DNA of 64,000 nucleotides, taken from assembly GCA_964628855.1 (NCBI GenBank), contig CAZVMV010000001.1:77145-141144 (forward strand). The letters are read 5' to 3'. Both the position numbers and the translations under genes were made by a program. How positions within the stretch are numbered: position 1 is the stretch's first letter; every line of letters starts with the position of its first letter. Under the pieces are notes generated by a model. That model had not been told where the DNA came from. It saw only the letters and a program-made list of their open reading frames with translations, and did not search any database. Positions 28,902 to 56,734 of the stretch are shown here, piece after piece. The stretch is from an uncultured Gammaproteobacteria bacterium. Lineage in GTDB: Bacteria > Patescibacteriota > Patescibacteriia > UBA10025 > JAHIVO01.

Positions 28902-29108
28902 TTATTCCTCTATTCGGTAATGACCGGCTCCTGTCACTTCGTTTTTTAGCTGACCGAAGTCTAGCGTCTCATCAAAATCCAATTCTGTTTTCCCGTTTTG
29001 CGGATCCACAGTCACAGACTTAACGCCGGGGACATCATTAATAACGTCTTCAAGCAAACCCTTGCAACCCGCGCAATGCGTACCTTGAATAATAAATGTT
29101 TTATGCAT
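28902..29108 (-). CDS. copZ: Heavy-metal-associated copper chaperone (CopZ-like).
   Basis: 68 aa with [12 protein letters not shown], which fits the MxCxxC family. Confidence 0.8.
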
Positions 29109-29117
29109 AATGATTTT

Positions 29118-30566
29118 TTAGTTATTTAAGCAATTCATTACTGTCGGATCACAAGTATCTGCCGGAGGCGTTCCATTAATGACTTTAAATGCGGCGCCTG
29201 GCGTGGTCATACCCATTGTACAACTAAATCCAATATCTCCTGCATCAGTCGGGGTGAATTTTATCGTTTTGATGCCGTCTTTCGGGAGAAATTGGGTGAT
29301 TTTCAGCTTCGGCACCGTTATCGCCTGCGCACAGCCGGCCGCTTTACTGGCATCAATCTGCCATTCAACCGGCATATTGGCATAGACAGTTACATTAGCA
29401 GGGACGTACTCATACCCGACTATTTTCATTTTTACTATCTGTACTCCGTTTACGATCTGGACATTCGGGTCGCGGATCGGCGTACCGGCTTGTGCAACTT
29501 GCTGGATATTGCCAGACGAAGTGTCGGATTCATCGGTTTTACCTAATCCGGCTAACGCGACACCGTTTGAAATATTGAAGATGCCAATAAGCACTACGAC
29601 CACAGCGGCAAATTTCATGAAATACTGCTGGAATTTACCTTTGGCAAAACTCAGAATTGCACTGAGCGACATCAGGGCTGGCAATGTCCCCAGCGCAAAA
29701 ACACCCATCGTCAGCATGCCGGTGAGAAAGCTCCCTTTTGTCAGGACGTACAATTGTAATGCTTGCGTGAACCCGCAGGGCATAAAAAAAGTCAGTGCTC
29801 CGAAAACGAACGGAGCGATACGTTTTTGCTTCCCTTCGGCCGCATTGAAAATACGGTGCGCGAATGATTTTGGCATACGCGGCTGAAACCTGGATAACCA
29901 TGGGAAAATATTTAGCAACTGCAACCCTAAAATTACCATGACTATACTGACCAGCACTGTCAAAATACCGTTCCATCTGGTCGAAAGGGAAAGCGACGCC
30001 CCAATCGCGCCAACCACGCCTCCTAAAACCGTATAGGAAACCAATCGGCCGATGTTGAAATACAAATGTGGCCTGAACCGTTCGCGACTGCTCTGGGCCT
30101 GGTGTTGTTCGTTGTACCTGGAAGCAACCGCCAGGAGCAACCCTCCAGTGACTGCCATACATGTCGAAACGGCAGCCACTAATCCTATAGAAAATACCAA
30201 CCAAAGACTCATGGATTCCTTTGCACCAAAATCGTTAGGCAATAGATGAAATTGCTTCAGGACAAAAAATAGCCCCAGGACTACTAATACAATCCAGCCT
30301 AATTGGAGATAATCACGCCAATCTTGCGGCCGCCTGACCAACCCCATCATGCTAGTAACAGAATAACCATCCGAAACCACTGCCTGATGTAGCGCTTCAA
30401 CGGGAACAGATCCTTCGTACTCCACTTCTGCCTGGCCACGGGCCAGGCTGGCCGAAACCTGCCTGACACCAGGGACTTTGCGCATCTTTCTCTCGATCAA
30501 GGTCTCGCATGCGGCACAATGCATGCCGGAAATTAGTACCGTTATTTTATTTAATTTATTTTCCAT
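29118..30566 (-). CDS. Fusion of an HMA domain, a DsbD_2/CcdA-like transmembrane domain and a C-terminal Cys-containing extracytoplasmic domain.
   Basis: N-terminal GMHCAACETLIE. The central polytopic region has conserved Cys pairs in TM helices (VSTCMAV, FFMPCGF). The C-terminal ~120 aa are soluble with three Cys. Confidence 0.55.
   Translation of the reverse strand: MENKLNKITVLISGMHCAACETLIERKMRKVPGVRQVSASLARGQAEVEYEGSVPVEALHQAVVSDGYSVTSMMGLVRRPQDWRDYLQLGWIVLVVLGLFFVLKQFHLLPNDFGAKESMSLWLVFSIGLVAAVSTCMAVTGGLLLAVASRYNEQHQAQSSRERFRPHLYFNIGRLVSYTVLGGVVGAIGASLSLSTRWNGILTVLVSIVMVILGLQLLNIFPWLSRFQPRMPKSFAHRIFNAAEGKQKRIAPFVFGALTFFMPCGFTQALQLYVLTKGSFLTGMLTMGVFALGTLPALMSLSAILSFAKGKFQQYFMKFAAVVVVLIGIFNISNGVALAGLGKTDESDTSSGNIQQVAQAGTPIRDPNVQIVNGVQIVKMKIVGYEYVPANVTVYANMPVEWQIDASKAAGCAQAITVPKLKITQFLPKDGIKTIKFTPTDAGDIGFSCTMGMTTPGAAFKVINGTPPADTCDPTVMNCLNN

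Positions 30567-37546: not shown

Positions 37547-37549
<3 letters not shown>
37515..37549. terminator. Bidirectional rho-independent terminator between the small plus-strand ORF and ligA.
   Basis: GGGCGGCAGG-N9-CCCGCCGCC followed by TTTTTT. ligA stops at 37547 on the other strand. Confidence 0.55.
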
Positions 37550-40912
<3,363 letters not shown>

Positions 40913-42306: not shown

Positions 42307-42985
42307 AACTCCCCTGATTTTCAGAAACTTGTCCGGAAATCAGGTTAACGGATACCCGCCGGCAAAAGTCTGAAATATGGGAGTTGCGTAAAACTATTTC
42401 AACATTAGTAATGGTAGTATCGATTGCACCGTCTAAATAAATTTTTGCCACGCCCTCGGGTGGGCTGAAGGTAATAGACAGGGGCGTATCAACCTGGTCA
42501 TGGACTGGTGTTATGGATGGACTGACACGATATCCGATTATGCTGACATTCTTTGATTGATTATCCTGATTAATCACCCCATAATCGACGCCGGCATTCG
42601 GCACGCCATCGGGTTGTGTATCCCCAAACATCTGATAAGCGTACCTGTCACCGATGTAGATGCCATATCCGTTGGTAGGTGTGGTATTTTTGCACGCTTT
42701 GAGGTCTGCCGTACTGCCGCAATCAGAATACAGACGGCAGGACATATAAACATTCGCGGATGAATAAACCGGCTGACAATAACTGTAACTGTTGCCAGCG
42801 ATTGTATAGCTCTGGGCGAGTCGGATGTCCTGAAGTAATTTGGTGGACACCCCCCTTAATTCTGTTGAATGACGCCCTGACTGGAAATTTACCAGCACTA
42901 AAGTGGTCATGACCCCGATTATGGCAATCACAACCAGAAGCTCTGCGATCGTGAAACCTTTTTGAAATTTATGGACGCTCCTCAT
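42296..42985 (-). CDS. Type IV prepilin-like minor pilin (GspH/FimT-like).
   Basis: MRSVHKFQKG|[15 protein letters not shown] is a canonical prepilin leader with E+5. Confidence 0.7.
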   Translation of the reverse strand: MRSVHKFQKGFTIAELLVVIAIIGVMTTLVLVNFQSGRHSTELRGVSTKLLQDIRLAQSYTIAGNSYSYCQPVYSSANVYMSCRLYSDCGSTADLKACKNTTPTNGYGIYIGDRYAYQMFGDTQPDGVPNAGVDYGVINQDNQSKNVSIIGYRVSPSITPVHDQVDTPLSITFSPPEGVAKIYLDGAIDTTITNVEIVLRNSHISDFCRRVSVNLISGQVSENQGSCGI

Positions 42986-43734
42986 AGCGAAAAAAGATCA
43001 CGATAATAATCCACCACTGCCGGCCCGATGAAAAACGCGGCATAGGTCGCCAGGGTAAGAAATGTCCCAAATGGTACCTGGCTATGCCATTTTTTTCGGC
43101 GTGTCAGTATCAGACCGACCCCGATTATGGACCCTAGAAAATATGCGGAAACCAAGGCTACAAGCACGTGCGGCCACCCGAGCATCATACCCATCAACAC
43201 ACCTAAACGGATATCGCCTCCACCAATCCATCTTCCCCGCGACACCAGGAATTGTAATAAGAAAAAACCCCCGCCCAAAAGCGCCCCAAAAAAGAGGCTA
43301 ACCACGCTGATCTTCAAAACCAGGGCCGAAAGGATAAAGGCCAATACAATGGCCGGAATGCTTACTTTATCCAGGATCAAATAATATTTCAGGTCAAAAA
43401 CGAATATCAGCATCAGCAGGCAGGCATAAACTAGGTAGACAAAAAATGCCGACGTCAAACCGAACTGCCAATATAATAGAATAAACGAGACTGACATCGC
43501 GGCCTCAACCAAAGGGTATTGCCATGAAATCGGCTTTTGGCAATAACGGCAACGGCCTCTCAATAGTAAAAAACTCACCAAAGGAATGAGGTCCATGGCG
43601 ACAAGATTATGCTTGCAATGCGGGCAATACGACCGACCCCTCATAAAAGATACTCCGACGTGAAGTCGGTAAATAACGGCATTCAAAAAACTGCCTACTA
43701 CCAACCCAAGAATTGCCACCAAAAATGTAATCAT
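42982..43734 (-). CDS. pilD: Prepilin peptidase (A24 family) with an N-terminal tetra-Cys domain.
   Basis: CPHCKH...CRYCQ zinc motif. Polytopic membrane protein. Catalytic-Asp context GGDIRLG. Confidence 0.85.
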   Translation of the reverse strand: MITFLVAILGLVVGSFLNAVIYRLHVGVSFMRGRSYCPHCKHNLVAMDLIPLVSFLLLRGRCRYCQKPISWQYPLVEAAMSVSFILLYWQFGLTSAFFVYLVYACLLMLIFVFDLKYYLILDKVSIPAIVLAFILSALVLKISVVSLFFGALLGGGFFLLQFLVSRGRWIGGGDIRLGVLMGMMLGWPHVLVALVSAYFLGSIIGVGLILTRRKKWHSQVPFGTFLTLATYAAFFIGPAVVDYYRDLFSL

Positions 43735-43798: not shown

Positions 43799-44221
43799 TT
43801 ATTTTATACCGTCCTGCGACAGTACATGCCTGCCAGCGGCAAAATTATCATATGATTTCTCCAGTGTAAAAGTGATCGCGTAACTCTCCGCACCCGGTAC
43901 GCCAGTTACCTGATACTGATATTTCCCCGGATCTTTCATCTGGCCGATTGTCGGTATATATTGCCCCAGATTGCACTGGCTGACAGCCATACCAGTCCTA
44001 TCGCATCCTGACTGGGCCGCCATAGCATAACTGGACGTTTCAGCAAATGTAAGTTCAAAGGCAGCCTGAATTCTGGCCATATCTGCCATCCGCTTCGCAT
44101 CGCGCGATTTGGCCTTTTCCTCATTCAATAGCAGGAAACTAACCCCAATGACCAATCCAAATACGATGATGATAATTATGACCGAAACTGCTGAGATCCC
44201 TCGTTGGTTTGTAATTTTCAT
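43799..44221 (-). CDS. Pilin-like protein with an atypical N-terminus.
   Basis: NQRG|ISAVSVIIIIIVFGLV has no Glu at +5. RDAKRMADMARIQAAFELTF is the conserved pilin alpha1-C pattern. A C-terminal Cys pair (SGCDRTGMAVSQC) forms a D-region-like loop. Confidence 0.45.
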   Translation of the reverse strand: MKITNQRGISAVSVIIIIIVFGLVIGVSFLLLNEEKAKSRDAKRMADMARIQAAFELTFAETSSYAMAAQSGCDRTGMAVSQCNLGQYIPTIGQMKDPGKYQYQVTGVPGAESYAITFTLEKSYDNFAAGRHVLSQDGIK

Positions 44222-44239
44222 ACGAATAATTATATACGG

Positions 44240-44731
44240 TTATGGTAATGGCGTACAGGCGTTAGCTTCGCTGAAGACACCGCTAGAATAAAAGACCCTC
44301 CAGGTATAGTTAACGCTCTCTTTCAAAAGGCATATTTTATAATTCCTGTTACCATTTACTTCATTGGTATCGTACTGATAATAATAGTTCGGCCCGTTCA
44401 TCGGGTCTACAAATACTTGGGAGGTATATTTGGGAACGAGCGGGTTGGCCACCCCTGAAAAAATTGAACCATCGGGCGGATTATTACTCGTATCGGCCGT
44501 GGTGCCGCCTCCAGAAATTGTCGGCGGATAGCTGTCGTAGTCGTCGAAATACAGGAACAGCGCTAACCGTAATTGCGATAAATCTGAAATGCGCCTAGCG
44601 TCACGGGCGGATTCTCTGGCATCCTGGATAGCCGCCATGCCCATGACTGACAATAACCCGATTATGGCTATTACGATTATCAGCTCAATTATCGAAAAAC
44701 CTCCCAATTTTTCATCCTGCCCAATTCGCAT
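44240..44731 (-). CDS. Type IV pilin.
   Basis: DEKLGG|FSIIELIIVIAIIGLL, then ARESARDARRISDLSQLRLALFLY. Confidence 0.75.
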   Translation of the reverse strand: MRIGQDEKLGGFSIIELIIVIAIIGLLSVMGMAAIQDARESARDARRISDLSQLRLALFLYFDDYDSYPPTISGGGTTADTSNNPPDGSIFSGVANPLVPKYTSQVFVDPMNGPNYYYQYDTNEVNGNRNYKICLLKESVNYTWRVFYSSGVFSEANACTPLP

Positions 44732-44773
44732 AATTTATCTGTAATAAAGAGGTTATACCTACATTATACTCGG

Positions 44774-46741
44774 CTATGGAAGTTCCTTCAATTTCTGTTC
44801 TGCCAGCGAGAAGCCAGGCCTCAGCCTGACCGCTTCTTGAAAATGGCTTCGCGCATTGTTATTGTCGCCAACTGCCTCAAAATTTTGCCCTAATAATAAA
44901 TGGAGAAAAGCAAGCTGGGTCGGCAAATTCGGGTTACTTGTCTGTTCCAAACTTCCATATTTATCCAAAATCGTGATGATGGTTTTTTGGGAATTATCAT
45001 AGTCCTTCCTGTTGAAATAAACCAAAGCAGCCGAATAATAAAAATCCGGACGGAAAACAGGATTGTAATAAATCGCTTGTTCGTATTCCTGCAACGCCTC
45101 CGACTCCTCGCGATCAGCATAATGCAGCTGGCCCAGATAGAAATGTCCGGAGTAATATTCGGGGTTTCGTTTTAATGCCGTTTTCAGATTTTCCTTGAGC
45201 TTTGATTGCTGATCTTTCGACAATACTTGATACCCGATTCCGAGGGCACTAACTTCATTGATCAGATAGCTAGGATCAGGATCAAATCGCCCGCCCTGAT
45301 CATAATAATTGTAACTGATTTCGAAGTCCCCAGTGATTGCGGCTTGTTCGCCTTTTTGGAAATTATTCACGCCCAAGAATAATGTGCACCCACGTACTAA
45401 AAACGCGATCGCCACTAATGCTAACATTACTTGGGCAGTTATAATAAGCCCTCGATTAACTTTTGTAATTCCGCCGACAGCGGGCTCAGGTTGTTCTGAA
45501 TTTTTCGCAGACATAGCTCCAATACACATCCAAAACAAAATAAACACGGCGGGGAACTGCCAGCCGAAATCAAAAAGCGAATGTATGGCCGATCCGACCA
45601 CGCTAATCCATACCCCGAAAAAAATTATTTTCTTTTCAGGATCAACTTGAGTCATTGATTTCTTATAAGTACGTGCGACCAGTAGGACAACAAATGCCAT
45701 AAACGCCAACCCGCCAATGATGCCCGTTTCAGCGGCAGTTTGCAGATAGTAATTATGTGTATACCTGGGCTGTTCCAATAAACTGGTTGCGTAACGGGCA
45801 TAAACCAGTTGGAAGGTGTTATAACCAAAACCAATCAGCGGACTCTCCTGAACCATCCGGATGGCAGCCCTGTCAAAATTTAGCCGCTGGTTGAAACTGG
45901 TGATTAAATGCTGCTTATTGATTGTCGAATGTATTTTTACCGCCTCCGACCAGTTTTGGCTCTGGCTGTAACGGAAAACAACAACGACTGCCAGCATAAC
46001 GAAAATCAACAAGGCCCCAATAAATATTTTTTTCCGGGTAAATAATGTTTTACGGAAAAAAATCACCAACATCATGCCTGGGATAATAAAACTGACCCAA
46101 CTGGTATAGGAATATGTCAGTGCGAATGCAGCAATGATAATCCCGAGACAAGCGTAAAAAAAGAAACGTATTTTTTTGCCTGCTTTTTGGGCTGTAAGCA
46201 TGATGCCGATTGGCAGAGAAAACAACAAATAGCTACCCAGCGCATTCGCGTTAAACAGGAAACCCGACCCGCGGTTTTCTGCCTGGAAGGCAAACATCAC
46301 CAGGGAAATCAACGCTGCAATTGCTCCGACAAAAAAAACCACGTTAATAATTAACCTGACCCACCGCCACTCCCGAAAAAATAAAATAGCCCCGAAAAAA
46401 ATAATAACATAGCCAGCCAGCAAAAAAAGCAGGCTGATACTGTCATAATGGTTTGAGGAAAAAAATACCGAAACCGCGACCGCCAATAAAAATACCACCA
46501 AATAGGAAATTGGCGACGAGATAACCGAACGTAGCGAAACCGGGGATACTATAGTCCGCTGCCCGATAAGTATAATCAAATAAAAAGCCAATAGTGACGT
46601 AGAGACAAGGATAGCAGCTTGGAGCCATTTACTCCATTCGCCGCCGAAGAAAGACGGGACAACGATCAGGAAAACAAACAAACCAAAAACAATCTTTTGT
46701 CTGAACGAATTGATATCACGTGAAATTGCATCAAGCATCAT
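44774..46741 (-). CDS. Wzy_C / O-antigen-ligase-family membrane protein with a C-terminal TPR domain, a candidate pilin O-oligosaccharyltransferase (PglL/TfpO-like).
   Basis: About 12 TM helices with a large loop containing the Wzy_C region (IGFGYNTFQLVY...HNYYLQTAAETGIIG). The C-terminal 200 aa carry TPR-like repeats (EALQEYEQAIYYNP, ARSHFQEAVRLRP). Flanked by pilin genes and a GT2. Confidence 0.6.
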   Translation of the reverse strand: MMLDAISRDINSFRQKIVFGLFVFLIVVPSFFGGEWSKWLQAAILVSTSLLAFYLIILIGQRTIVSPVSLRSVISSPISYLVVFLLAVAVSVFFSSNHYDSISLLFLLAGYVIIFFGAILFFREWRWVRLIINVVFFVGAIAALISLVMFAFQAENRGSGFLFNANALGSYLLFSLPIGIMLTAQKAGKKIRFFFYACLGIIIAAFALTYSYTSWVSFIIPGMMLVIFFRKTLFTRKKIFIGALLIFVMLAVVVVFRYSQSQNWSEAVKIHSTINKQHLITSFNQRLNFDRAAIRMVQESPLIGFGYNTFQLVYARYATSLLEQPRYTHNYYLQTAAETGIIGGLAFMAFVVLLVARTYKKSMTQVDPEKKIIFFGVWISVVGSAIHSLFDFGWQFPAVFILFWMCIGAMSAKNSEQPEPAVGGITKVNRGLIITAQVMLALVAIAFLVRGCTLFLGVNNFQKGEQAAITGDFEISYNYYDQGGRFDPDPSYLINEVSALGIGYQVLSKDQQSKLKENLKTALKRNPEYYSGHFYLGQLHYADREESEALQEYEQAIYYNPVFRPDFYYSAALVYFNRKDYDNSQKTIITILDKYGSLEQTSNPNLPTQLAFLHLLLGQNFEAVGDNNNARSHFQEAVRLRPGFSLAEQKLKELP

Positions 46742-46788
46742 AACGTAAGTATAACAAAAATTTCGCCATGCTGACAGGCACAGCTTGA

Positions 46789-47769
46789 CTAAAACTTGGC
46801 CAGGCTGAATTTACCTGACCAGTCTCTGATTTGGCGGGGACTGACTCTCCTTTTTGCCTGGATTTGCGTCCGCTGGTATAGGAGTCTAGGCAAAGACAAA
46901 ACCAAGGAAATAATTATTTTTGCATACACCCAGATATTTTCAGTAAATGACAATCGATAATCCGCATCGACTGACTCCCTGCCTTTCACGGCTGGTAACC
47001 AAAAGCGGAGCGGGTAATTCTTAATGGCTGAGAAAATCCTGTTTCGCCCGGAGTGGTACCGCCGGAACATATATGACATTTTTTTAGTGGTCGACGCCAC
47101 TTTATGGTAAACCACGGCACGTGGCTCATACATTATCTTCCACCCGCGTAACCTGGCTCTGATAGACAGGTCCGTATCCTCGATATATGCAAAAAAATGG
47201 CGGTCAAAATAACCACCTGATGTTTTACAATCCTCCAACATTTCACGCCTGTACAGCGCTGCCCCAGCCCTGGCAGAAAAACATTCTTCAGTGTGTTCAA
47301 ATTGCCCAACGTCTTCCTGCCCATATCCGCGGGTTATGACTTTCATGGTACCTGGCTGGAGAAAATCTCCGGCAGAATCAATTTTACTACGTTCATAGAA
47401 AAACTTGATTTTGCTGGAAATGGCACCGATGGACTCGTCCTGCTCAGCCAAACTAACTAATCCTCTGAGCCAATCCTTTTCAACCTCGGTATCGTTATTC
47501 AAGGTAACGAGATACTTGCTGTCCGAATTTTGCATCGCCTCTGTTATGCCGATATTATTCCCTTCGGCAAATCCTGTATTCTTATGCAGACAGATTACTT
47601 TGACTTTAGGAAAGTTTTTTTCGACGAAAGGCACAGAATCATCGCTGGATCCGTTATCGACAAATATAACGCTAAAATCCTCATAAGTCTGCGCAAAGAC
47701 AGAACGCAGGCATACATCCAAATGCTCACGGCCGTTCCAATTGACTATGATAATCGAGACGGTCGACAT
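46789..47769 (-). CDS. Family 2 glycosyltransferase.
   Basis: VSIIIVNWNG, DNGSSD and the DxD context form a GT-A fold signature. 326 aa. Confidence 0.8.
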   Translation of the reverse strand: MSTVSIIIVNWNGREHLDVCLRSVFAQTYEDFSVIFVDNGSSDDSVPFVEKNFPKVKVICLHKNTGFAEGNNIGITEAMQNSDSKYLVTLNNDTEVEKDWLRGLVSLAEQDESIGAISSKIKFFYERSKIDSAGDFLQPGTMKVITRGYGQEDVGQFEHTEECFSARAGAALYRREMLEDCKTSGGYFDRHFFAYIEDTDLSIRARLRGWKIMYEPRAVVYHKVASTTKKMSYMFRRYHSGRNRIFSAIKNYPLRFWLPAVKGRESVDADYRLSFTENIWVYAKIIISLVLSLPRLLYQRTQIQAKRRVSPRQIRDWSGKFSLAKF

Positions 47770-47912
47770 GGTATCTTACTGTAAACTATAAGTGCTATTC
47801 AAAACTTAATTGATAATAATTACTACACGACCCTATCATTGTACATAAAACCGAACAAAACAAAAAGCGCCCCCTTAATCGGAGACGCTTTTTGTATGTA
47901 ATATCCTAATTA

Positions 47913-48350
47913 CTAGAAAGTAGTGCAACCAGCAACGCTGGTCACCTTATCGCCTGACGCACCGTCACCTGCTACATAGAAGTAGTTTGTCGGAGTTGTA
48001 GGCGATTCAAGTGTCGCGTAAAGTACGTAGGTAGAGACATTACGTGTCGCACTCGTGCATTGCTCATAAACATAATGCCTTGTAGTAATCGGGTCGTCTG
48101 GCAATTTGGAAATATAATTCGGGACTAGCGGAGTATTGAGTGCAGTGTAGGCTACGTTTGGATAACCACCGTTATTGTCATCCGCATACAGTGTCAAGGC
48201 AGTCTTGACCTGAGAAATATCTGATTTGCGGGTCGCGTCGCGGGCCTTTTCACGGGCACCGTTTAAAGCGACTAACCCGATGGTTGCCAAAATACCGATG
48301 ATGGCGATAACCACCAATAACTCAATTAAAGTGAAACCTTTTTTATTCAT
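47913..48350 (-). CDS. pilA: Major type IV pilin (PilA-like).
   Basis: MNKKG|[47 protein letters not shown] and a C-terminal Cys pair. Start set at the internal ATG preceded by GGGGGTGAAG, which drops 53 codons of the tracked ORF. First gene after pilC and its own promoter. Confidence 0.8.
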
Positions 48351-48507: not shown

Positions 48508-48536
48508 AATAATACTGACTTAATAATAGCACATTT
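48508..48536 (-). promoter_or_regulatory. Candidate sigma70-type promoter for pilA.
   Basis: Minus-strand TTGACA-N17-TATTAT lies ~160 nt upstream of the pilA ATG and just downstream of the pilC stop. No sigma54 -24/-12 element was found. Confidence 0.3.
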
Positions 48537-48553
48537 TCAGCAACTTGTCAAAG

Positions 48554-49762
48554 CTAGATGGCATTCGACATATTGTAAATCGGCATGATTATGGCGGCTA
48601 CCAGGAACCCTACCGCTACGCCCATAATGACCATGATAATGGGCTCTATCAGGGTGGTTAAGTTGGCCAGAGAATTCTCCAACTCACGGGTATAAAAATC
48701 AGCTACCTTCAACAATATCTTGTCCAATTGGCCCGACTGTTCACCGACACTCATCATTTGGGACAACATGATAGGGACGTCCTTGCTTTTCACGAATACG
48801 CTGGTTATTGAAGCACCAGCTTCGACCTGCTTGATCGTCTCTTGGATGAGTGTGCGATAAATCGTATTGCCCACCACGTCGGAGGTTATGTCCAATGACT
48901 GCGTCAGGGTAACACCGGAAGCCAGAAGCGTTGATAATGAACGTGAAAACCTCGCGATATACAACCGACTGAATATCGGACTGAGAATCGGTAATTTCAA
49001 TTTTAACAGGTCTATCCGTTTTCTGCCTTCTTCGGTCTTCGATATATATCGATAGGCAATGAATAGGCCAATGACCAGAATAAACAAAACCCACCAATAC
49101 GAGGTCAAAAAACCGCTGAGCCCCATCAAAATCCTGGTCGGGAGGGGTAATTGTGTGGCTGATGACTCAAAAATAGAGGTGATTTGCGGCAGCACGAAAA
49201 CCATCATCATCACTGCAACCCCGCCCAAAGCAACCAGAATAAAGGCGGGGTAAATCATGGCGCCGCGGGCCTTGGCCATCATATCATAATCTTTTTCATT
49301 TTGATCAGCCAGATAAACCAAAATCTCATCCAGGCGGCCGGTGGTTTCTGCCGACCTAACCATCTGGATGAAAAAGTTTGAAAATACTTTTGGATAACGC
49401 GCCAGTGATTGCGAGAGTTTGGCGCCACCGTCGACCTCATCGGCAATATCTGAGATGATAGACTTGAATTTGTTATTCTCCGTCTGCCTGACCAGCACCT
49501 TCAGGGCGCGTACGATCGGCACGTTTGACGAGATCATCACGGAAAGCTGGCGTGAAAACATGACAACTTCTTTCGGCTTCACCGGTTTCCCAAATGTCAT
49601 ACCGCCGCTCAAGAACTTCATCTTTTTCTGCTCTTTCAGGTCTACGATAAAAAGATTTTTGTCGCGCAAAATACCATAGGCCACATTCTCTGTTGGGGCC
49701 ACGACGACACCGCTCACCAGCTCGCCCAATTGACTCCGCGCTTTGTATGCGTAATCGGCCAT
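48554..49762 (-). CDS. pilC: Type IV pilus platform protein PilC (GspF family).
   Basis: 402 aa with two GspF repeats and three TM segments. Confidence 0.9.
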   Translation of the reverse strand: MADYAYKARSQLGELVSGVVVAPTENVAYGILRDKNLFIVDLKEQKKMKFLSGGMTFGKPVKPKEVVMFSRQLSVMISSNVPIVRALKVLVRQTENNKFKSIISDIADEVDGGAKLSQSLARYPKVFSNFFIQMVRSAETTGRLDEILVYLADQNEKDYDMMAKARGAMIYPAFILVALGGVAVMMMVFVLPQITSIFESSATQLPLPTRILMGLSGFLTSYWWVLFILVIGLFIAYRYISKTEEGRKRIDLLKLKLPILSPIFSRLYIARFSRSLSTLLASGVTLTQSLDITSDVVGNTIYRTLIQETIKQVEAGASITSVFVKSKDVPIMLSQMMSVGEQSGQLDKILLKVADFYTRELENSLANLTTLIEPIIMVIMGVAVGFLVAAIIMPIYNMSNAI

Positions 49763-49775: not shown

Positions 49776-50162
49776 TTATTTCACGTATTTTTTAATCTTC
49801 TCCACCACCTCTGAAGGCATGAAGTGTGCCTTGATGAGGTAGTCAGACGCGCCTAAATCAAGGCCTTTCTGGACATCGTCTCGCTGACCAAGGTTAGTCA
49901 GTAAAATTACCGGGATGTTCTTCGTCGAAGGATCCTCTTTCAGACTCTTTAATACGTCAAACCCGCTCATCTTTGGGAGCACAATGTCCAGCAAGATGAT
50001 TGACGGCAACTCGGCCTGGGCCATCTTGAGGCCTTTTTCCCCATCCGGTGCCAGATGGACTTCGAAATTTTCCAGGTTAAGCTTGGCCACGTACATGCCG
50101 GCCAAAAAAGCGTCATCTTCGACTAAAACGATTTTTATTTTGGATCCCTTGGTGTTAGCCAT
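49776..50162 (-). CDS. Stand-alone CheY-like receiver (PilH/PilG-like) inside the pil operon.
   Basis: IVLVEDD, LLDIVLPKMSGFDVL and LLTNLGQRDDVQKGLDLGASDYLIK. Paralogue of 34825..35232. Confidence 0.8.
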   Translation of the reverse strand: MANTKGSKIKIVLVEDDAFLAGMYVAKLNLENFEVHLAPDGEKGLKMAQAELPSIILLDIVLPKMSGFDVLKSLKEDPSTKNIPVILLTNLGQRDDVQKGLDLGASDYLIKAHFMPSEVVEKIKKYVK

Positions 50163-50187: not shown

Positions 50188-51939
50188 TTAAGTTTGGGTA
50201 GCTCGTAAAACTTCTGAAAGCGACGTTTTTCCTTCTAGCGCTTTCAGGATGCCGTCCTGGGCCATGGTCAGGATGTTCTGGCGTTTGGCCGTTTCCTTGA
50301 TGGCGTCGATCGTCGGATTAGTAACGATCACATTTTTCAGTTCTTCGTCAATTTCAATTATTTCGTCAATCAAAATGCGCCCCTTATATCCTGTATTTTC
50401 ACATCTCAGGCAACCCTGGCCTTCGTGGAACAGCAATTTTTCGGCGTTGTCGCCAAGCCTTGATTTCAGCATCTCAGGAGGAATATTAGACAGTTCCCGC
50501 TCAACTTTTTTCCTCAACTCCACAGGAATCTCATTAACCTTCTGGCAATACGGGCATAAACGGCGGACTAAGCGTTGGGCTACCACGGTAGTCAATGATG
50601 CGGTGATTAGGAACGGCTCAATTTTCATGTCAATCAGACGCGGAATGGCTCCGAACGCATCATTGGTATGCAAGGTGGACAATACCAGATGGCCAGTCAG
50701 TGCAGCATGGACACCCAACTCGGCCGTTTCATTATCACGGATTTCGCCGACCATGATGATATCCGGATCTTGGCGCAGGATAGAGCGTAGACCGGCCGCG
50801 AACGTTAAGCCAACCTCGGCATTTATCTGAGATTGATTCACGCCATTTATATAATACTCGACCGGATCCTCTAGAGTGATGATATTAATCGACTCGTCGT
50901 TTAGAATCGTCAATAACGCAGACAAAGTGGTTGATTTTCCCGATCCGGTAGGCCCGGTCAATAGGATCATGCCTACGGTCTTTTCTACCGATCGTTTCAT
51001 GACTTCCAGGTCACGACCTTCGAAACCGAGCTTTTCCAGGTCTAGGACGACTGCCGCACGATCGAGAATACGCATCACGACCTTCTCGTTCGAAAACAAC
51101 GGCAAGGTCGAAACACGGTAATCGATCACGCGCCCCTCCCACTCCGTCCTGAACCGTCCATCCTGCGGCACCCTAGTTTCGTCTAACTTAAGGTTTGACA
51201 AAACTTTGATACGGGCGACAATCGCGCCATGAACATATCGCGGTAAGACCAACGAAGTATGCAATACTCCATCAACACGATAACGGACGCGAGTCTCGTT
51301 TTCTACCGGTTCAATATGAATATCAGAGGCTTTCCCCTCAACCGCGTGGCGCAATATCACGGATACCATTTTTGAAACTGGTGCAGATTTCACCACTTCC
51401 TCCATCCCCTTTTCCTGGCCCATCATCTCGTCCAAGGCATCGCCATGCTTGTCCTCGGTGCTGGCCAAAGCCTCCTCCACCTCTGCTCCCAGTGTAGCGT
51501 ACTGTTTTGAAGCGTACTGGAAACCGCTCAAGGAAATGATGAAATATTTCACTTTATAATTGTTTTCCCTGGCGATATATTCGATCGCTTCGATTGCCTT
51601 GAAATCAGTCGGGTCAACCATGGCTACGCTTACATCCCCTAAATTTTTCTCAAAAGCGACGATATGGTAGTTTTCCGATAATTCTCTTGGTATCACATTC
51701 AATATCCCCTGCGTGATCGTCTTTCCAAACAGGTCCATATACGGTACGCCCAGTACTTTGCTCTTGGCCTTCACTAAATCTTCCTCTGCCACATAGCCGC
51801 GTTTCATGATCTGGTCTATCAATTCAGCTTCACTGTGTGTTTGGGACTGCAAATCAGCCAGCTTGTCCGGCGGGATCAGGCCTTGTTCAATTATGATATC
51901 AATAACAGTTTTTCGTTGTGTATTATCTGTGTCAGTCAT
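50188..51939 (-). CDS. pilB: Type IV pilus assembly ATPase PilB (GspE family).
   Basis: T2SSE_N N-terminal domain. Walker A GPTGSGKST. Asp box. His box. Tetra-Cys CPYCQ...CLRCENTG. 583 aa. Confidence 0.9.
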   Translation of the reverse strand: MTDTDNTQRKTVIDIIIEQGLIPPDKLADLQSQTHSEAELIDQIMKRGYVAEEDLVKAKSKVLGVPYMDLFGKTITQGILNVIPRELSENYHIVAFEKNLGDVSVAMVDPTDFKAIEAIEYIARENNYKVKYFIISLSGFQYASKQYATLGAEVEEALASTEDKHGDALDEMMGQEKGMEEVVKSAPVSKMVSVILRHAVEGKASDIHIEPVENETRVRYRVDGVLHTSLVLPRYVHGAIVARIKVLSNLKLDETRVPQDGRFRTEWEGRVIDYRVSTLPLFSNEKVVMRILDRAAVVLDLEKLGFEGRDLEVMKRSVEKTVGMILLTGPTGSGKSTTLSALLTILNDESINIITLEDPVEYYINGVNQSQINAEVGLTFAAGLRSILRQDPDIIMVGEIRDNETAELGVHAALTGHLVLSTLHTNDAFGAIPRLIDMKIEPFLITASLTTVVAQRLVRRLCPYCQKVNEIPVELRKKVERELSNIPPEMLKSRLGDNAEKLLFHEGQGCLRCENTGYKGRILIDEIIEIDEELKNVIVTNPTIDAIKETAKRQNILTMAQDGILKALEGKTSLSEVLRATQT

Positions 51940-51954: not shown

Positions 51955-52851
51955 CTATGGTTGAAAAGGATTTTCGCGGTATGGGGCCGCCATTACGTCA
52001 GTAGATGATTCATTGCCGCTCGCGTCCACTCCGGTCACTGTGTAGAAATATGGGACGTTCGGGATGACCGTATCTAGAATATATTGCATATTTTCCGAAT
52101 CGTTCTGAATGTCGGCGCTTACCAAATTGCCAAGGAGTCCCCGTTCACTGGATTTGTAGATATGGACCGTACTGAAATCAGGGTCCAGAGGCACAAGCCA
52201 AGAGATTTTCACCTGACTGTCCGTCACATTCTGCACCGTTACATTCAATGGAGCGCTAGGCGGAAACGTGTCATGGGGCGTACCGGGAAATTGCTGGCCA
52301 TTTTTTGAAACAGCGCCCTCGGCATTGACCGTTAGAACGATATAATAATAAGTTGTGAGGTTAGCTAGATCGTGATCAGTGTAGTTCTGCAATGTGTCAG
52401 TAGCCTTCACCGTGGCGGTGTAAACTTCCTCCCCCAGAACGCCGACCTGCTCAGAACGGTACACTTTCACGGTAGTAAAATTTTTCTGTAGAGGAAGCTG
52501 CCAGCTGACGAGCAGGCGCCCACCCGTGCCAGGATCAGTGACGGCAATCTTTTCTGGCGCAAGCGGTACGTCAGCATCTAAATAAACTCCGGAAAGCTGT
52601 TCGGCAAACCCTGGGGCATTTTTTTCCATAAACGTCCCGATTTGTGCATCATTAAGCAGTCCTTCATTAAGCGGTGTTACTACGACCGGCTGCTCCAACG
52701 CGGTCAGGGTAGTATCCGGTACAGTATTCGTAACTGAAGGCTTGGCAAAATATGTACTATAAATGAAATATCCGCCCGGGAGCAAAAGGGTGCAAAAAAT
52801 TATCAATAATATTTTCGTCCTTTTATTTAACCCCGTTTTTTGCACTAACAT
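51955..52851 (-). CDS. Membrane-anchored protein with two fibronectin-type-III-like domains.
   Basis: N-terminal TM helix. Two FN3-like modules (LLVSWQLP...VKVYRS...YYYIVLTVNAEG and VKISWLVP...VHIYKS...YFYTVTGVDASGNES). Confidence 0.5.
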   Translation of the reverse strand: MLVQKTGLNKRTKILLIIFCTLLLPGGYFIYSTYFAKPSVTNTVPDTTLTALEQPVVVTPLNEGLLNDAQIGTFMEKNAPGFAEQLSGVYLDADVPLAPEKIAVTDPGTGGRLLVSWQLPLQKNFTTVKVYRSEQVGVLGEEVYTATVKATDTLQNYTDHDLANLTTYYYIVLTVNAEGAVSKNGQQFPGTPHDTFPPSAPLNVTVQNVTDSQVKISWLVPLDPDFSTVHIYKSSERGLLGNLVSADIQNDSENMQYILDTVIPNVPYFYTVTGVDASGNESSTDVMAAPYRENPFQP

Positions 52852-52861: not shown

Positions 52862-53443
52862 TTATTGATAATAAGTCGTTAGGTTGAGCGTATAGGCGCT
52901 GCTCCCCGGCAAGTATGATAGAGAGTTGAGCTCAAAGAAAGGCACCGAATTGCTCAGCTGGTCCAGAAAATTCTTCAGACCGGCATAACTCTCCAAACCG
53001 TCAAAACTGACGGTGATGTTCAGTTTCCGAATAACCGGCACCGCCGCCCCAGCACTCGCATTCGTGCTCGAGAATGCCCCACTGTCTATCGTTACGAGTT
53101 CCAGGCCGTTATCAGTTATCAGTTGCTTCAGCTTCATAATCACATAGGGCAGATCAGCCTCATGCGGCAATACTGATTGGATATGCTTCAATTGACTGTA
53201 GTCCAAGGCCTCATATTGTTTTTTCAGGTTCTTTAGTTTATCCAGCGCCCGTTGCTGCTGGTCGATAATTTGTTGTTTATTCTCAATGTCCGCCACGCCC
53301 ACCACCCTGATTTTGTCGACTGTTTGTTTGACAAAAAACCAGTAGCCGCCAGCTAAGATGACCAGCACCAACGCAATGACGATGCCGATATAATAGCGGT
53401 TAATGAAGGCTAGGACTGATTTTAATATTTTCCCCTTTTCCAT
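52862..53443 (-). CDS. pilO: PilO-like T4P alignment-complex protein.
   Basis: Single TM helix, a coiled-coil segment (QQIIDQQQRALDKLKNLKKQYEAL) and a C-terminal ferredoxin-like domain. Positioned after pilN. Confidence 0.6.
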   Translation of the reverse strand: MEKGKILKSVLAFINRYYIGIVIALVLVILAGGYWFFVKQTVDKIRVVGVADIENKQQIIDQQQRALDKLKNLKKQYEALDYSQLKHIQSVLPHEADLPYVIMKLKQLITDNGLELVTIDSGAFSSTNASAGAAVPVIRKLNITVSFDGLESYAGLKNFLDQLSNSVPFFELNSLSYLPGSSAYTLNLTTYYQ

Positions 53444-53449: not shown

Positions 53450-55354
53450 TTATTGAGGCCAATAAAATATTGTCGGCGTAATCATGAGATTGACGGAAAA
53501 TTTTACGGTGTCCTGTGTTTGCGCGATTAGTAGGCTGCCGCTGCCGGCTCCCAGGCAATTCGTATCCTCGGTGAAACAGATGCCGGTCACGGTTACCTTG
53601 GTCACGAAATCGGTGGCGCGCTTGAAGACTTCGAATTGTTTTATGGCTGATTCATAATCCTGGCCGATGGCTGCCAGCGAAACGCTGCCATTGACATCCG
53701 CGGTCAACGAAGTGAAATAAACGCCGGAAACTGTATAATTTTCTAGCTTGTTGAATATCCCGGACCAATAGACGTGCTTCTTTATCAATGTATCAATATT
53801 TCCCATTACTTGATTTAAATTTCGCACCTCTTCCTGCAATTGCTGGTAACTGTTTATTTCAATGCGGTTACTGGCAATCTGGCCGTTTAATCCGCTCACT
53901 TTTGCGGAAACATTTGAATAATAATAATTTGCCACTACCCATCCGCCAAAAACTATTCCGACAGCAATGATAATGCTCAATATGCCAACAAGAATTTTTG
54001 AAATGGGCAGGGCTTTTTCAATGATCTCTTCGGGCACCAGGTTCACTTCCCATTCGATCGGACTTAACATTTTGCCGGCGCCCTTTACGTCGGTCAATTT
54101 GACTCCGGGAATATTCTGCACCGAACCAATTTGTTTCAATGATGACTTTTTGGATGATATTTTTTTACCGCTGAATAAATCTTTGATTGCCTTCCAAAGT
54201 TTTTCCCACCACGAAACCTGGTCCACCTTTACTTCACTTGCCTTTTCTGCCGGGGGTGGCGGTGGGACGATTGGCGGGGCAGTTTTGATCGACGGGGGTG
54301 GCGGTGGTTTAGGCGTACTAATTATTGGCGTAACTACTGACTGACTCTGGACTGGTTTGACAGGCATGGGTGGAATAAATTCTTTGACCGTTTGTTTCGG
54401 TGTCTCGAGAATTTTATTTATATTTGGTTCTGGCCGGGTGAAAGGCGGCATGATTTTGTGAGGCACTGCACTATCACGATGCAACATTGGCTGCGGGATA
54501 AATGTTGGCGCTGATGGCGCAGCAACTTTTTGCTCAACACGCGCCACGATCGGCGGTTCTGGAGTTTTGATGAGCTTCTCTGGCTCTACGGGGGTCATGG
54601 AAATAATTTTTTGTTTGGGGGCGCGGACAAAAAATTTCTTAAACCAGTTAGCTATTTTTTTCCAAAATGATACTTTGGGCGCTTTCGGCTGTAGGGCCGG
54701 TATGGAAGTTTGCTTTATCACTTTGAATGCCGGATCAATTTTTGGGAAGCCTTCATGAGGAATATCAAAACGACGACCGTTAGTAGTGACCTCGGGCATT
54801 GTAACGCCATTATCCGGCTTCCTGCCATTCGTCGTGACGGTGATGACTTCGGTCGGTTTTGGTTTACGCACAGGTTCGACGGCTGGAATTTTTTCTGCGC
54901 GGATGGGCTGGTACTTTGGGAATGCATCTTTGGCCGTAACCGGAGGTACACTAGGCGCTGGCACCAGCGCTTTCGGTTTGCCGCCAAACATGGAGCTGAA
55001 AAAATTACTCATGCGTACTCCGAACGGTTTGGAGCTGCGGACCTGCATTCTTTCCTGTTCTGGCGCGACCATCTTTATTATCGGCCGTGGTGCTGGTTGC
55101 GGTTTGGGTTTCTCATAAACCAATTTCTCCTCGACCATCACTTTTTTCTCGGGCCACTGTTTTTCTGCATCAGCCACAACAGGCTTCGGCTTGGCGAAAG
55201 CCTGTTTGAAAAAACCCAAAACTCCGCCCCGCTTGATGGCTGGCTTACTTTTTTCAAGCTTAACAGGCCCAGTCATCTCAACGATGGGCGTGGGTTGGTA
55301 TTTTATTTTTCCCGTTTTAATTTTTTCCTCCGATGGGAGGAGGTTTATTGACAT
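53450..55354 (-). CDS. pilN: PilN-like protein with a ~430-aa Pro/Lys-rich cytoplasmic linker.
   Basis: Starts MSINLLP, the PilM-binding INLLP motif. Residues ~20-445 are low-complexity P/K/V-rich. Single TM helix ILVGILSIIIAVGIVFGGWVV, then a coiled coil and the periplasmic domain. 634 aa. Confidence 0.6.
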   Translation of the reverse strand: MSINLLPSEEKIKTGKIKYQPTPIVEMTGPVKLEKSKPAIKRGGVLGFFKQAFAKPKPVVADAEKQWPEKKVMVEEKLVYEKPKPQPAPRPIIKMVAPEQERMQVRSSKPFGVRMSNFFSSMFGGKPKALVPAPSVPPVTAKDAFPKYQPIRAEKIPAVEPVRKPKPTEVITVTTNGRKPDNGVTMPEVTTNGRRFDIPHEGFPKIDPAFKVIKQTSIPALQPKAPKVSFWKKIANWFKKFFVRAPKQKIISMTPVEPEKLIKTPEPPIVARVEQKVAAPSAPTFIPQPMLHRDSAVPHKIMPPFTRPEPNINKILETPKQTVKEFIPPMPVKPVQSQSVVTPIISTPKPPPPPSIKTAPPIVPPPPPAEKASEVKVDQVSWWEKLWKAIKDLFSGKKISSKKSSLKQIGSVQNIPGVKLTDVKGAGKMLSPIEWEVNLVPEEIIEKALPISKILVGILSIIIAVGIVFGGWVVANYYYSNVSAKVSGLNGQIASNRIEINSYQQLQEEVRNLNQVMGNIDTLIKKHVYWSGIFNKLENYTVSGVYFTSLTADVNGSVSLAAIGQDYESAIKQFEVFKRATDFVTKVTVTGICFTEDTNCLGAGSGSLLIAQTQDTVKFSVNLMITPTIFYWPQ

Positions 55355-55624: not shown

Positions 55625-56734
55625 TTACACTATTTCCCGCATTGCCAGTCCGATCGAAACCGCCATCCTAGGGCCCAGCTCCTTCAATAATGCGTCGATT
55701 TCTACCGGATGAATGACTCGTGCCCACGGATCACCGATAAACGACTTGATGTTGAATATCCCCTCGATCGTGTTTGGCATATTCGCTAAAAATGAGGAAC
55801 CGCCGGTCAAAATGACTTTCGTGATTGGTTTCTTGTTCTGATTCTGATAAATGTTCAGGATATAACGGATCTCATTAATTATGGAATTTATGACGTAGCT
55901 CACCGGTTTCGGAAGTTTGCTGATTGATTCTGACGTCACCGACATCCCGACGTCACGCTTGAATTGCTCGGCTTGCTCCTGGGTCAGTCCCATAGTTTCC
56001 TGCAATGCGCGCGTAATTCCCTTACCACCAACGTCAATACTGCGGTTTAAAATCGGAACGCCGCTAGAAAAAATTATTATACTGGAAGTCTGACTGCCGA
56101 TATCTATCACCATCACCGGGTTCATGTCATTGCCGACCAGCGAACGTTCGAGCGCAAAAGATTCCGTTTCCAGCCCGACCAGCTGCAGCCCGACCAGTTT
56201 GAAAAGCTCTACATACCGGTTGACCAAATTTTTCGGGGCAGCCGTCATCAATATCCGTAAATTTGTTTTTGCTGGCGTGGCGCCAATTTCTTTTTTGTCA
56301 TTTTTTACATCTTTTTTCCCGTCGGAGTTGGCTTGCGGGGCAGCGGCCTCGCCAGGCTCTTTCAAAACTTCCCAGTCGAGAATCATTTCTTCAAGCGGGA
56401 TCGGTACGAATTTTTTCGCTTCCCAGCGGATGGCAGAGACCAAATCCTTATCCTTCATAGCCGGCAGGTTGATGATGGAACTGAACACTGAAAATGACGG
56501 CAAGGCTGCAATTGCGGCAGTAGCCCCAGCCCTGGTCTGTTTCATCAGCTCCTGTAGCTGGTTGGCGATTGCCGCTCTGGCAGCCGGATTGTCATCCTTG
56601 ATGATATTGTAAGTCTCGTCGATAAAACCATAAGTAACCAGCTGTGGTCGCCCATTTCCGGCGTTACGCAGTTCGACCAGTTTGATGCTGGCACCACTGA
56701 GATCGATACCGAGATAATTTAGATTTTTTGCCAT
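55625..56734 (-). CDS. pilM: Type IV pilus assembly ATPase-fold protein PilM.
   Basis: Actin-like fold (GIDLSGASIKLVEL). Carries a Lys/Asp-rich insertion. 369 aa. Upstream of pilN. Confidence 0.85.
   Translation of the reverse strand: MAKNLNYLGIDLSGASIKLVELRNAGNGRPQLVTYGFIDETYNIIKDDNPAARAAIANQLQELMKQTRAGATAAIAALPSFSVFSSIINLPAMKDKDLVSAIRWEAKKFVPIPLEEMILDWEVLKEPGEAAAPQANSDGKKDVKNDKKEIGATPAKTNLRILMTAAPKNLVNRYVELFKLVGLQLVGLETESFALERSLVGNDMNPVMVIDIGSQTSSIIIFSSGVPILNRSIDVGGKGITRALQETMGLTQEQAEQFKRDVGMSVTSESISKLPKPVSYVINSIINEIRYILNIYQNQNKKPITKVILTGGSSFLANMPNTIEGIFNIKSFIGDPWARVIHPVEIDALLKELGPRMAVSIGLAMREIV

Follow-up and report, generated by a model that had tools for sequence, protein, structure and literature searches.

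This analysis concerns a four-gene module in a stretch of 64,000 nucleotides (the window) of a Patescibacteria genome (candidate phyla radiation, CPR; GenBank assembly GCA_964628855.1, contig CAZVMV010000001.1, positions 77,145 to 141,144). The module is embedded in a complete type IV pilus operon and reads, on the minus strand, as the major pilin gene pilA, a gene for a family 2 glycosyltransferase (GT2), a gene for a protein of 655 aa that joins a Wzy_C domain to C-terminal tetratricopeptide repeats (TPR), and a second pilin gene; order and coordinates (Table 1) are as an earlier sequence-only reading had placed them. The 655-aa protein, here called Wzy_C-TPR, is probably a type IV pilin-directed O-oligosaccharyltransferase that works with an accessory GT2 in a variable glycan island of the pilus operon. 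That the genes form a pilin O-glycosylation module had been the proposal of the sequence-only reading, and it stands as the best-supported explanation from genome context, but several of its specifics do not hold.

Conserved linkage of the Wzy_C-TPR gene to type IV pilins

Related neighbourhoods were gathered from identical-protein look-ups, a one-genome-per-species scan, a metagenome scan and look-ups of GT2 orthologues, and the loci were annotated by BLAST with the window's own proteins. All counts of loci refer to 24 distinct loci, with duplicates removed and the window itself excluded, in 23 of which the presence of GT2 could be judged; statements on pilus linkage cover these loci, and the larger set of homologues described further below was counted for architecture only. 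A word-indexed protein search returned approximately 31 full-length homologues of approximately 650 aa (33–63% identity), all of them with both Wzy_C and TPR, and the named homologues belong to Patescibacteria, including Candidatus Kerfeldbacteria; an NCBI contig encodes a protein identical to that of the window.

The Wzy_C-TPR gene is flanked on both sides by pilin or pilin-like genes in every one of the 24 loci or, where a short contig breaks off, has one such gene as its neighbour. Its position within the pilus operon is identical across the main clade, across a distant subclade of 26–32% identity (L016-L018, L024, L031, L033-L035), in which the operon also encodes a PilT-like ATPase and carries two PilA-type genes, and in forms fused to GT2 (L039, L040), which share 21–24% identity with Wzy_C-TPR. 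Since the arrangement is seen in every related locus recovered, it is not due to chance. The outcome that was named as fatal to the sequence-only reading, namely relatives in lipopolysaccharide (LPS) or capsule loci without pil linkage, did not materialize, all 24 loci being pil-linked.

The GT2 gene is present in 13 of the 23 judgeable loci and absent from the other 10. In these ten, and in L026, where a local rearrangement has put GT2 after rather than before the Wzy_C gene, Wzy_C-TPR is encoded directly downstream of a PilA-type pilin; elsewhere only glycan genes separate the two, and in the window this is a single GT2. The constant unit is a pilin followed by Wzy_C-TPR, and GT2 is an accessory, not a constant, part of the module. 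The trio pilA-GT2-Wzy_C, whose conservation the sequence-only reading had named as a check, is therefore not the conserved unit, as GT2 is missing from 10 of 23 loci. The likeness to TfpO, whose gene immediately follows pilA, was also part of the earlier proposal; the same logic is found in the relatives, but in the window GT2 intervenes.

The nearest Wzy_C proteins outside the clade are encoded in ordinary exopolysaccharide, O-antigen or flippase loci: P0032 and P0035 are surrounded by Wzz, Poly_export, Bac_transf and flippase genes, without pilins. A distant protein with Wzy_C and TPR, P0036, was considered as a pilin-flanked case and rejected, its neighbours being lipoproteins, and two further CPR Wzy_C proteins, P0116 and P0104, were rejected as pil-linked, since they adjoin Wzx-like flippases and sugar-nucleotide enzymes.

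Some observations concern the records themselves. L007, L011, L015 and L017 come from records labelled "uncultured Gammaproteobacteria bacterium" despite a typical CPR pilus operon, which is probably a mislabel. The contig of L012 and L013 (JBIOWE010000017.1, 19.9 kb) has mutually reverse-complementary ends and identical loci, and looks like a palindromic assembly artefact. Small GIY-YIG nuclease genes occur at different positions of the pilus operon in L024 (11854-12141) and L040 (2724-3017), and may be mobile elements of the homing-endonuclease kind.

Domains, conserved residues and predicted structure

The 655-aa protein scores 77.8 bits (E 9.8e-22) on the Wzy_C profile (PF04932), whose gathering score is 31.7, members of the distant clade match the profile too, and the C-terminal TPR region is confirmed, all as the sequence-only reading had expected. 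Invariance of residues was assessed in two alignments, A1 (30 full-length members) and A2 (15 sequences). Invariant in the 30 full-length members are R157, N164, N166, R286, G304, G306, E323-Q-P, Y327, H329, N330, D391, F392 and W394; P301 is not invariant in the main clade. The GT2 fusions keep the catalytic-type residues unchanged except for Q164 and E391, and the distant subclade keeps the same residues, apart from P301 (W in L035).

Full-length queries of the PDB and of Foldseek were drowned in TPR proteins (OGT, SPINDLY, designed repeats), and a profile of the membrane domain alone was therefore used against the PDB. It matched only the ligase WaaL (7TPG; E 1.4e-6), up to profile position 418, and among the top 50 Foldseek matches listed WaaL is the sole membrane protein (E 1e-4). 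R286 and H329 align with R265 and H313 of WaaL, numbered by counting off the alignment with the 7TPG chain, and D391 stands opposite a Thr in the same alignment.

Schulz et al. (PMC3643930) give R288, H338 and R215 of E. coli WaaL, corresponding to R298, H349 and R224 of PglL, as shared residues, and Q178, N180, G316, G318, H400, E404 and P406 as specific to PglL with respect to WaaL; E404, which is E379 in PglS, matters functionally (PMC12800693). Several conserved positions of Wzy_C-TPR resemble this second set in spacing: the pair [N/Q]164-x-N166 sits 122 aa before R286 (120 in the PglL of Neisseria meningitidis), P301 also has a parallel by spacing, G304-x-G306 lies at +18/+20 from R286, as in the same PglL (a G-x-G is also present in the WaaL of Cupriavidus metallidurans), and H387-x3-[D/E]391 parallels H400-x3-E404. 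The correspondence is suggestive only, since it was inferred from spacing and not from an alignment with PglL.

The AlphaFold 2 (AF2) model of the protein (pLDDT 86.4, pTM 0.85) has 13 transmembrane (TM) helices followed by eleven TPR helices, the extra 13th TM helix being formed by aa ~430-455. The short loops assigned to the inside carry nine Lys and Arg residues and those assigned to the outside only one, which gives an N-in topology, and the N-terminus is also placed inside because a GT2 of the cytoplasmic type, which uses nucleotide sugars, is fused to it in relatives. With the N-terminus inside and 13 helices, the conserved residues of the catalytic loop and the TPR domain would all face outwards, and both are accordingly predicted to be extracytoplasmic.

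The TPR domain is retained in the distant subclade and contains two blocks that are invariant in the family, NPVFRPDFYY and SNPNLPTQLAFL; such family-specific invariant blocks suggest a specific, conserved ligand. The protein as a whole is among the fastest-evolving products of the operon: its identity in L001, L002 and L003 is 63, 40 and 36%, compared with 86, 70 and 74% for PilB and 83, 71 and 68% for PilD, a divergence that resembles that of the pilins and minor pilins.

Relation to the Wzy_C families

An exhaustive HMMER search of 1.84 billion representatives returned 33 at E<=1e-30 and 1,188 at E<=1e-10. Among the 137 nearest further representatives, 108 have at least 560 aa, and 99 of these 108 have a homologous C-terminal TPR domain, as scored with a hidden Markov model built from the TPR domain of the Wzy_C-TPR family itself. 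N-terminal fusions of approximately 960–1,060 aa recur among the representatives, with the match beginning at residue ~280-440. The combination of Wzy_C and TPR is therefore common; the sequence-only reading had called the added TPR domain unusual, an impression corrected by these counts as well as by WsfB and TfpW, both of which are described with TPR.

Membership of the Wzy_C superfamily is clear on sequence grounds: R286 and H329, the counterparts of R288 and H338 in E. coli WaaL, are invariant and are kept in the fusions and in the distant clade. The protein nevertheless departs from every named subfamily with which it was compared. The PglL-specific profile, which the sequence-only reading had proposed as a check, found nothing: PglL_A (PF15864) and Wzy_C_2 have no match at E<=10 in the protein, they occur in 0 of 120 profile homologues, and the NCBIfam PglL models are absent at E<=0.01. 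The IctB model (TIGR00947) is covered nearly whole, with 73.7 bits against a cut-off of 366.4. As for WaaL, no LPS or core-oligosaccharide gene was found among the Pfam-scanned open reading frames (ORFs) of the window or in the related loci, and the size differs, with 655 aa, 13 helices and a 200-aa TPR domain here against a chain of 413 aa.

The pilus-associated and S-layer enzymes agree in part. As with TfpO and TfpM, the gene lies downstream of the cognate pilin, and yet the proteins are larger (655 aa here, 565–685 aa in relatives, 985–988 aa in the fusions), all with TPR. The layout is like that of TfpW, with a large outward-facing C-terminal TPR domain encoded downstream of pilA; the membrane domain gives Wzy_C and WaaL matches only, and no match to the PMT or ArnT families. 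The architecture of WsfB/WsaB, Wzy_C with a C-terminal TPR, is present, but the window has neither Wzm/Wzt nor a gene for a surface-layer (S-layer) protein, and in L039 and L040, which do have Wzm/Wzt, the neighbours are pilins and not an S-layer gene.

The GT2 glycosyltransferase and the variable glycan island

The GT2 has an AF2 model of pLDDT 93.7, and its best fold matches are GlfT2 (TMq 0.70), ppGalNAc-T, TarP and RmlT, on account of which it is read as a cytoplasmic-face extender of a lipid-linked or polymeric acceptor. Its similarity to ArnC is marginal and it has a single weak C-terminal hydrophobic helix. A polyprenyl-phosphate-sugar synthase of the GtrB/DPMS type, serving a GT-C enzyme, was considered for this gene and rejected, since none appears among the top 50 fold matches.

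When the island is taken as whatever separates pilA from the following pilin or pilin-like gene, the slot behaves as a variable glycan island. It holds Wzy_C-TPR alone in L015 (~2.2 kb), GT2 and Wzy_C-TPR in the window (3.2 kb), and a PMT_2 transferase, GT2 and Wzy_C-TPR in L038 (4.3 kb), and it expands in L039 and L040 (11.5-12.5 kb) to a Wzm/Wzt exporter pathway that ends in a GT2::Wzy_C::TPR fusion. In L038, which belongs to Kerfeldbacteria, the additional gene between pilA and GT2 (7795-8985) encodes a 396-aa PMT_2/PMT (GT-C) transferase, which gives this island a second candidate surface glycosyltransferase, one of a different mechanism.

In L039 and L040 the island comprises a Wzm permease, a Wzt ATPase to which a Wzt_C or a methyltransferase domain is joined, further methyltransferases, and 4–6 glycosyltransferases if both the GT2 orthologue and the GT2 part of the fusion are included; the last gene is the fusion itself, of 985-988 aa (L039 10841-13798; L040 11839-14805). 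On its domain content, this gene set is a polysaccharide pathway that depends on an ATP-binding cassette (ABC) exporter and has a methyl-cap terminator. ABC-exporter pathways polymerise the glycan in the cytoplasm, and what is needed after export is a ligase, not a Wzy polymerase. The Wzy_C gene of these two islands is for this reason read as a ligase. As the content of the island varies, the lineages would decorate their pili with different glycans, and the genome context suggests that the pili carry strain-variable sugar coats.

Two genes elsewhere in the window point to some capacity for lipid-linked glycan synthesis: one for a WecA-like transferase, with 92 bits against the WecA model and 65 against MraY (both under the cut-offs), and one for a sugar nucleotidyltransferase (Table 1). 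Together they could supply a lipid-linked primer for the module.

The pilins as candidate acceptors

PilA and the second pilin are candidate acceptors of the glycan. In fact pilA begins with the ATG at 48350, its product having the leader MNKKG and the mature N-terminus FTLIELLVV; a longer, TTG-started ORF (to 48509) was rejected as an artefact of mechanical ORF listing. PilA orthologues retain a "DG[T/x][S/N]" motif in a Cys-bounded C-terminal loop. The second pilin, whose gene is invariably directly downstream of Wzy_C-TPR in the main clade, shares with its orthologues the motif "GPDxS" as well as several Ser, Thr and Tyr residues that do not vary.

The sequence-only reading had proposed a search of the adjacent pilins for Ser/Thr-rich acceptor sites at their C-termini. 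The TfpO/TfpM rule is not followed: a C-terminal Ser or Thr is not conserved on PilA, the termini of the orthologues being F, P, G, D, C, A, G, H, A, D, C, S, D, G and G, and the second pilin ends in P, L, T, S, I or G.

Proposed function and alternative explanations

In the mechanism that is proposed, the glycan would be assembled on polyprenyl pyrophosphate at the cytoplasmic face, with a WecA-like enzyme (possibly the product of 5077-6192) starting it and GT2 extending it. The lipid-linked glycan would then be flipped or exported, by the Wzm/Wzt ABC exporter in two relatives and presumably by some transporter in the organism of the window, although no glycan transporter was identified in the window. 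At the outer face, and by a chemistry extrapolated from WaaL, PglL and PglS, the arginines R157 and R286 of the Wzy_C domain would bind the pyrophosphate, and H329 with D391 would move the glycan en bloc onto a side-chain hydroxyl of the membrane-anchored pilin, before the fibre is assembled. The 13th helix would set the TPR domain outside, beside the active site, where it could recruit the pilin, a role proposed by analogy with TfpW, WsfB and OGT. No alternative acceptor is evident, and the pilus operon of the window has no secretin gene.

Several points weigh against this proposal. The case for glycosylated pilins, in any CPR bacterium, is built wholly on context, conservation and homology, and the conserved internal Ser, Thr and Tyr residues of the pilins are too numerous for a single acceptor site to be named. 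PglL_A and Wzy_C_2 are unmatched, the best whole-domain NCBIfam match is IctB, a family of unclear function, far below its cut-off, and the match to PglL-specific residues was judged by spacing, without an alignment to PglL. The module in the window has neither a flippase nor an initiating transferase, and the WecA-like gene is 39 kb away and scores below the family cut-off. Small genomes such as these keep a very rigid gene order, which makes linkage weaker evidence of function than it is elsewhere. Finally, a strong terminator-like hairpin stands between pilA and the GT2 and Wzy_C genes, which would therefore need read-through or a promoter of their own; pilA may be transcribed separately and at a high level, and the glycosylation genes may be reached by read-through.

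The main rival explanation is that Wzy_C-TPR is a general O-oligosaccharyltransferase, like the PglL of Neisseria, or one for another surface protein, such as the S-layer enzymes WsfB and WsaB, with its position among the pilins reflecting co-expression or history and the pilins being at most one of its substrates. PglL-type enzymes do glycosylate many proteins (PMC9829042), both the architecture of Wzy_C with TPR and the Wzm/Wzt islands of L039 and L040 have counterparts in the clusters for S-layer glycosylation (PMC2943079), and an acceptor site on the pilins is not definable. Against these stand the pilin or pilin-like neighbours found in every locus, despite divergence and the rearrangement in L026, the lack of an adjacent S-layer-like gene, and the fact that CPR Wzy_C proteins from generic glycan loci fall in different, distant clades. 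This explanation is considered unlikely, but it is the one that has to be taken most seriously.

A ligase of the WaaL type could instead transfer the glycan to a non-protein acceptor (a glycolipid, an anchor resembling lipoteichoic acid, or peptidoglycan), giving a surface polymer around the pilus. The single match among solved structures is WaaL, in public annotation the family goes by "O-antigen ligase family protein", and ABC-exporter O-polysaccharide pathways normally end in WaaL. CPR bacteria are generally held to lack LPS, and core-oligosaccharide and lipid A genes are absent from the locus. The large outer-face TPR domain is moreover typical of protein-modifying transferases (TfpW, WsfB, OGT), an acidic residue stands, by spacing, where PglL has E404, against a Thr in the aligned WaaL, and the linkage to pilins is invariant. 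A non-protein acceptor is for these reasons rather improbable, and less likely than a general protein glycosylase.

That the enzyme is a Wzy-type polymerase, joining lipid-linked repeats into an exopolysaccharide that cooperates with the pili, is very unlikely. The Pfam family Wzy_C does span polymerases too, and a distant CPR homologue, P0098, is named "O-antigen polymerase" in one public record; but the gene comes last in the Wzm/Wzt pathways of L039 and L040, in which Wzy has no use, no pil-linked locus has a Wzx flippase or Wzz, and in 10 other loci the enzyme stands alone, without a neighbouring glycosyltransferase. Least probable of all is a non-enzymatic factor of pilus assembly or stability, with a TPR scaffold like that of PilF, PilW or Tgl and the Wzy_C-like part as its anchor: the TPR region matches the PilW and Tgl models weakly and partially, and the JGI name of one homologue is "O-antigen ligase/Tfp pilus assembly protein PilF", but those matches are generic TPR similarity far below the cut-offs, the outer-face Arg, His and acidic residues of catalytic type are invariant down to 21% identity, and glycan-synthesis genes gather alongside, with GT2 even fused.

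Beyond the pilin-directed transferase itself, a broader reading is put forward tentatively, as a conjecture somewhat short of an even chance. According to it, Wzy_C-TPR would represent a fifth family of Wzy_C O-oligosaccharyltransferases apart from the four known, defined by Wzy_C, a 13th helix and an outward TPR domain and specialised for the type IV pilins of single-membrane CPR bacteria; its fixed slot would be a hypervariable island, with 0 to ~10 genes of synthesis and export, and related lineages would show different pilus glycoforms. As it is by pili that these bacteria attach to host cells, the glycan would serve to adjust host range or to escape phages and predators.

The surrounding pilus operon and other features of the window

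According to Pfam and NCBIfam assignments, the region from 37.5 to 56.7 kb of the window is a single minus-strand gene array (Table 1). The protein of 634 aa in the position of PilN has orthologues of 40-70% identity in the related loci, and the response regulator and the fn3 protein are fixed members of the operon in those related loci that reach far enough. Directly upstream of pilM lies an ORF of 2,388 aa (56746-63912, minus strand), whose sole match is a faint one to BNR_4; its product is possibly a large surface protein or adhesin tied to the pilus operon. Unrelated to the pilus, a copper-type P1B ATPase with HMA adjoins a DsbD_2/HMA/cupredoxin protein (26674-30566, minus strand), as a metal-handling pair.

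Table 1. Features of the window, with coordinates counted from its first nucleotide.
Feature	Position	Strand	Evidence and remarks
GlmU-N-terminal-like sugar nucleotidyltransferase	803-1630	-	near the WecA-like gene
WecA-like polyprenyl-phosphate HexNAc-1-phosphate transferase, 371 aa	5077-6192	-	Glycos_transf_4 2.9e-28
DNA ligase LigA	37547-39568	-	Pfam/NCBIfam
Four minor pilins, 229/214/254/451 aa	39565-42985	-	N_methyl and PilX_N matches; synteny conserved
Prepilin peptidase PilD	42982-43734	-	A24_N_bact 6.9e-33; Peptidase_A24 1.5e-11
Pilin-like protein, 140 aa, non-canonical N-terminus (no Glu5)	43799-44221	-	conserved in all loci
Second pilin, 163 aa	44240-44731	-	N_methyl 1.2e-3; GspG-like 5e-7
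Wzy_C-TM13-TPR protein (Wzy_C-TPR), 655 aa	44774-46741	-	Wzy_C aa 199-348; several TPR families aa ~500-650
C-terminal TPR domain of Wzy_C-TPR, aa 456-655, ~5.5 repeats	44777-45376	-	after the 13th TM helix; predicted extracytoplasmic
Large extracytoplasmic loop of Wzy_C-TPR (predicted), aa 262-330	45752-45958	-	R286, G304, G306, E323-Q-P, Y327, H329, N330; also P301
GT2-family GT-A glycosyltransferase, 326 aa	46789-47769	-	Glycos_transf_2 (PF00535) 5.6e-25
Terminator-like hairpin directly 3' of the pilA stop codon	47860-47895	-	15-bp stem, then T-run
pilA, major type IV pilin, 145 aa	47913-48350	-	N_methyl 1.6e-9; IV_pilin_GFxxxE 4e-10
Sigma-70-like promoter match upstream of pilA	48523-48551	-	11/12 positions, extended -10 TG; consensus match only
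PilC	48554-49762	-	Pfam/NCBIfam
Response regulator, stand-alone, between PilB and PilC	49776-50162	-	Pfam/NCBIfam
PilB ATPase	50188-51939	-	Pfam/NCBIfam
fn3 protein, upstream of PilB	51955-52851	-	Pfam/NCBIfam
PilO-like protein	52862-53443	-	Pfam/NCBIfam
Proline- and lysine-rich protein, 634 aa, PilN position	53450-55354	-	without Pfam family match
PilM	55625-56734	-	Pfam/NCBIfam

Significance and comparison with known systems

Type IV pili are one of the few conserved surface machines of CPR bacteria. In cultivated Saccharibacteria they drive the attachment of the bacterium to its host, and in the same study O-glycosylation of pilins was only predicted, with a generic predictor and without naming an enzyme (PMC12206443). 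Literature searches, within the papers that were searchable, found no earlier link between genes of the O-antigen-ligase family and pili in CPR bacteria. A dedicated enzyme within the operon, together with a variable island, offers a concrete route to pilus glycosylation in a large uncultivated group, and the variability of the island could also explain strain-specific surface variation. If the proposed function is true, pilin-linked O-oligosaccharyltransferases of the Wzy_C type reach beyond the proteobacterial genera of the four named families. Enzymes of this kind serve the production of conjugate vaccines, and by late 2025 the structure of none of them had been solved (PMC12800693); with its modular TPR substrate-binding domain and its natural GT2 fusions, the family could be useful for glycoengineering.

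Among the closest known enzymes are WsfB of the Gram-positive Paenibacillus alvei and WsaB, with WsaA, of Geobacillus stearothermophilus, which are predicted O-oligosaccharyltransferases for S-layer proteins, encoded in slg clusters, and which are likewise Wzy_C proteins of single-membrane hosts. WsfB has a C-terminal TPR and WsaB a separate, adjacent TPR protein, and both were assigned the last step of a Wzm/Wzt S-layer glycan pathway with methyl-capping (PMC2943079). The islands of L039 and L040 hold the same kind of pathway as these clusters. The genes described here differ in that they lie in a type IV pilus operon between pilins, and not beside an S-layer gene, and in that the glycan pathway is reduced in the window to one GT2; the likeness to WsfB is one of described architecture and pathway.

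TfpO (PilO) and TfpM of Pseudomonas, Acinetobacter and Moraxella share the Wzy_C core with its essential His and the position of the gene downstream of a pilin, and the glycan that they transfer en bloc is carried by undecaprenyl pyrophosphate (PMC9829042). They are proteobacterial enzymes of 420–470 aa without TPR that modify a C-terminal Ser or Thr of the pilin, whereas Wzy_C-TPR has 565–685 aa (up to ~990 in the fusions), a 13th helix with TPR and a CPR host. PglL and PglS, from Neisseria, Acinetobacter and others, share the same core and its Arg, His and Glu active-site residues. PglS has 13 helices followed by an outward-facing C-terminal domain, and the sites that both enzymes modify are internal, while their genes often neighbour those of pilin-like substrates (PMC3643930, PMC9829042, PMC12800693). 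The proteins studied here differ from them in the unmatched PglL_A and Wzy_C_2 and in a C-terminal domain that is a clear multi-repeat TPR; the likeness in motifs comes from spacing only. As a precedent, the genes for TfpO, TfpM and PglS, and those for 21 of 31 PglL homologues, adjoin the genes of the pilins that they modify (PMC3643930, PMC9829042).

TfpW, the pilin arabinosyltransferase of Pseudomonas aeruginosa group IV strains, is encoded immediately downstream of pilA and likewise has a C-terminal TPR, and in some species sugar-precursor genes are clustered alongside it (bioRxiv 10.1101/2020.04.19.049825). Its membrane domain is of the GT-C type, similar to ArnT, with a DDX motif and polyprenyl-phosphate monosaccharide donors, whereas that of Wzy_C-TPR is of the Wzy_C/WaaL type. 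The WaaL of Cupriavidus metallidurans (7TPG/7TPJ) has a chain of ~413 aa without the TM13-TPR extension, and the acceptor of WaaL is the lipid A-core (PMC12800693); here, by contrast, there are an added helix and TPR, no LPS context and a constant linkage to pilins. Taken together, and as far as can be judged from the predicted protein and its gene neighbours, Wzy_C-TPR combines the core of TfpO, PglL and PglS with the outward TPR of WsfB and TfpW and the pilA-adjacent position of TfpO, TfpM and TfpW.

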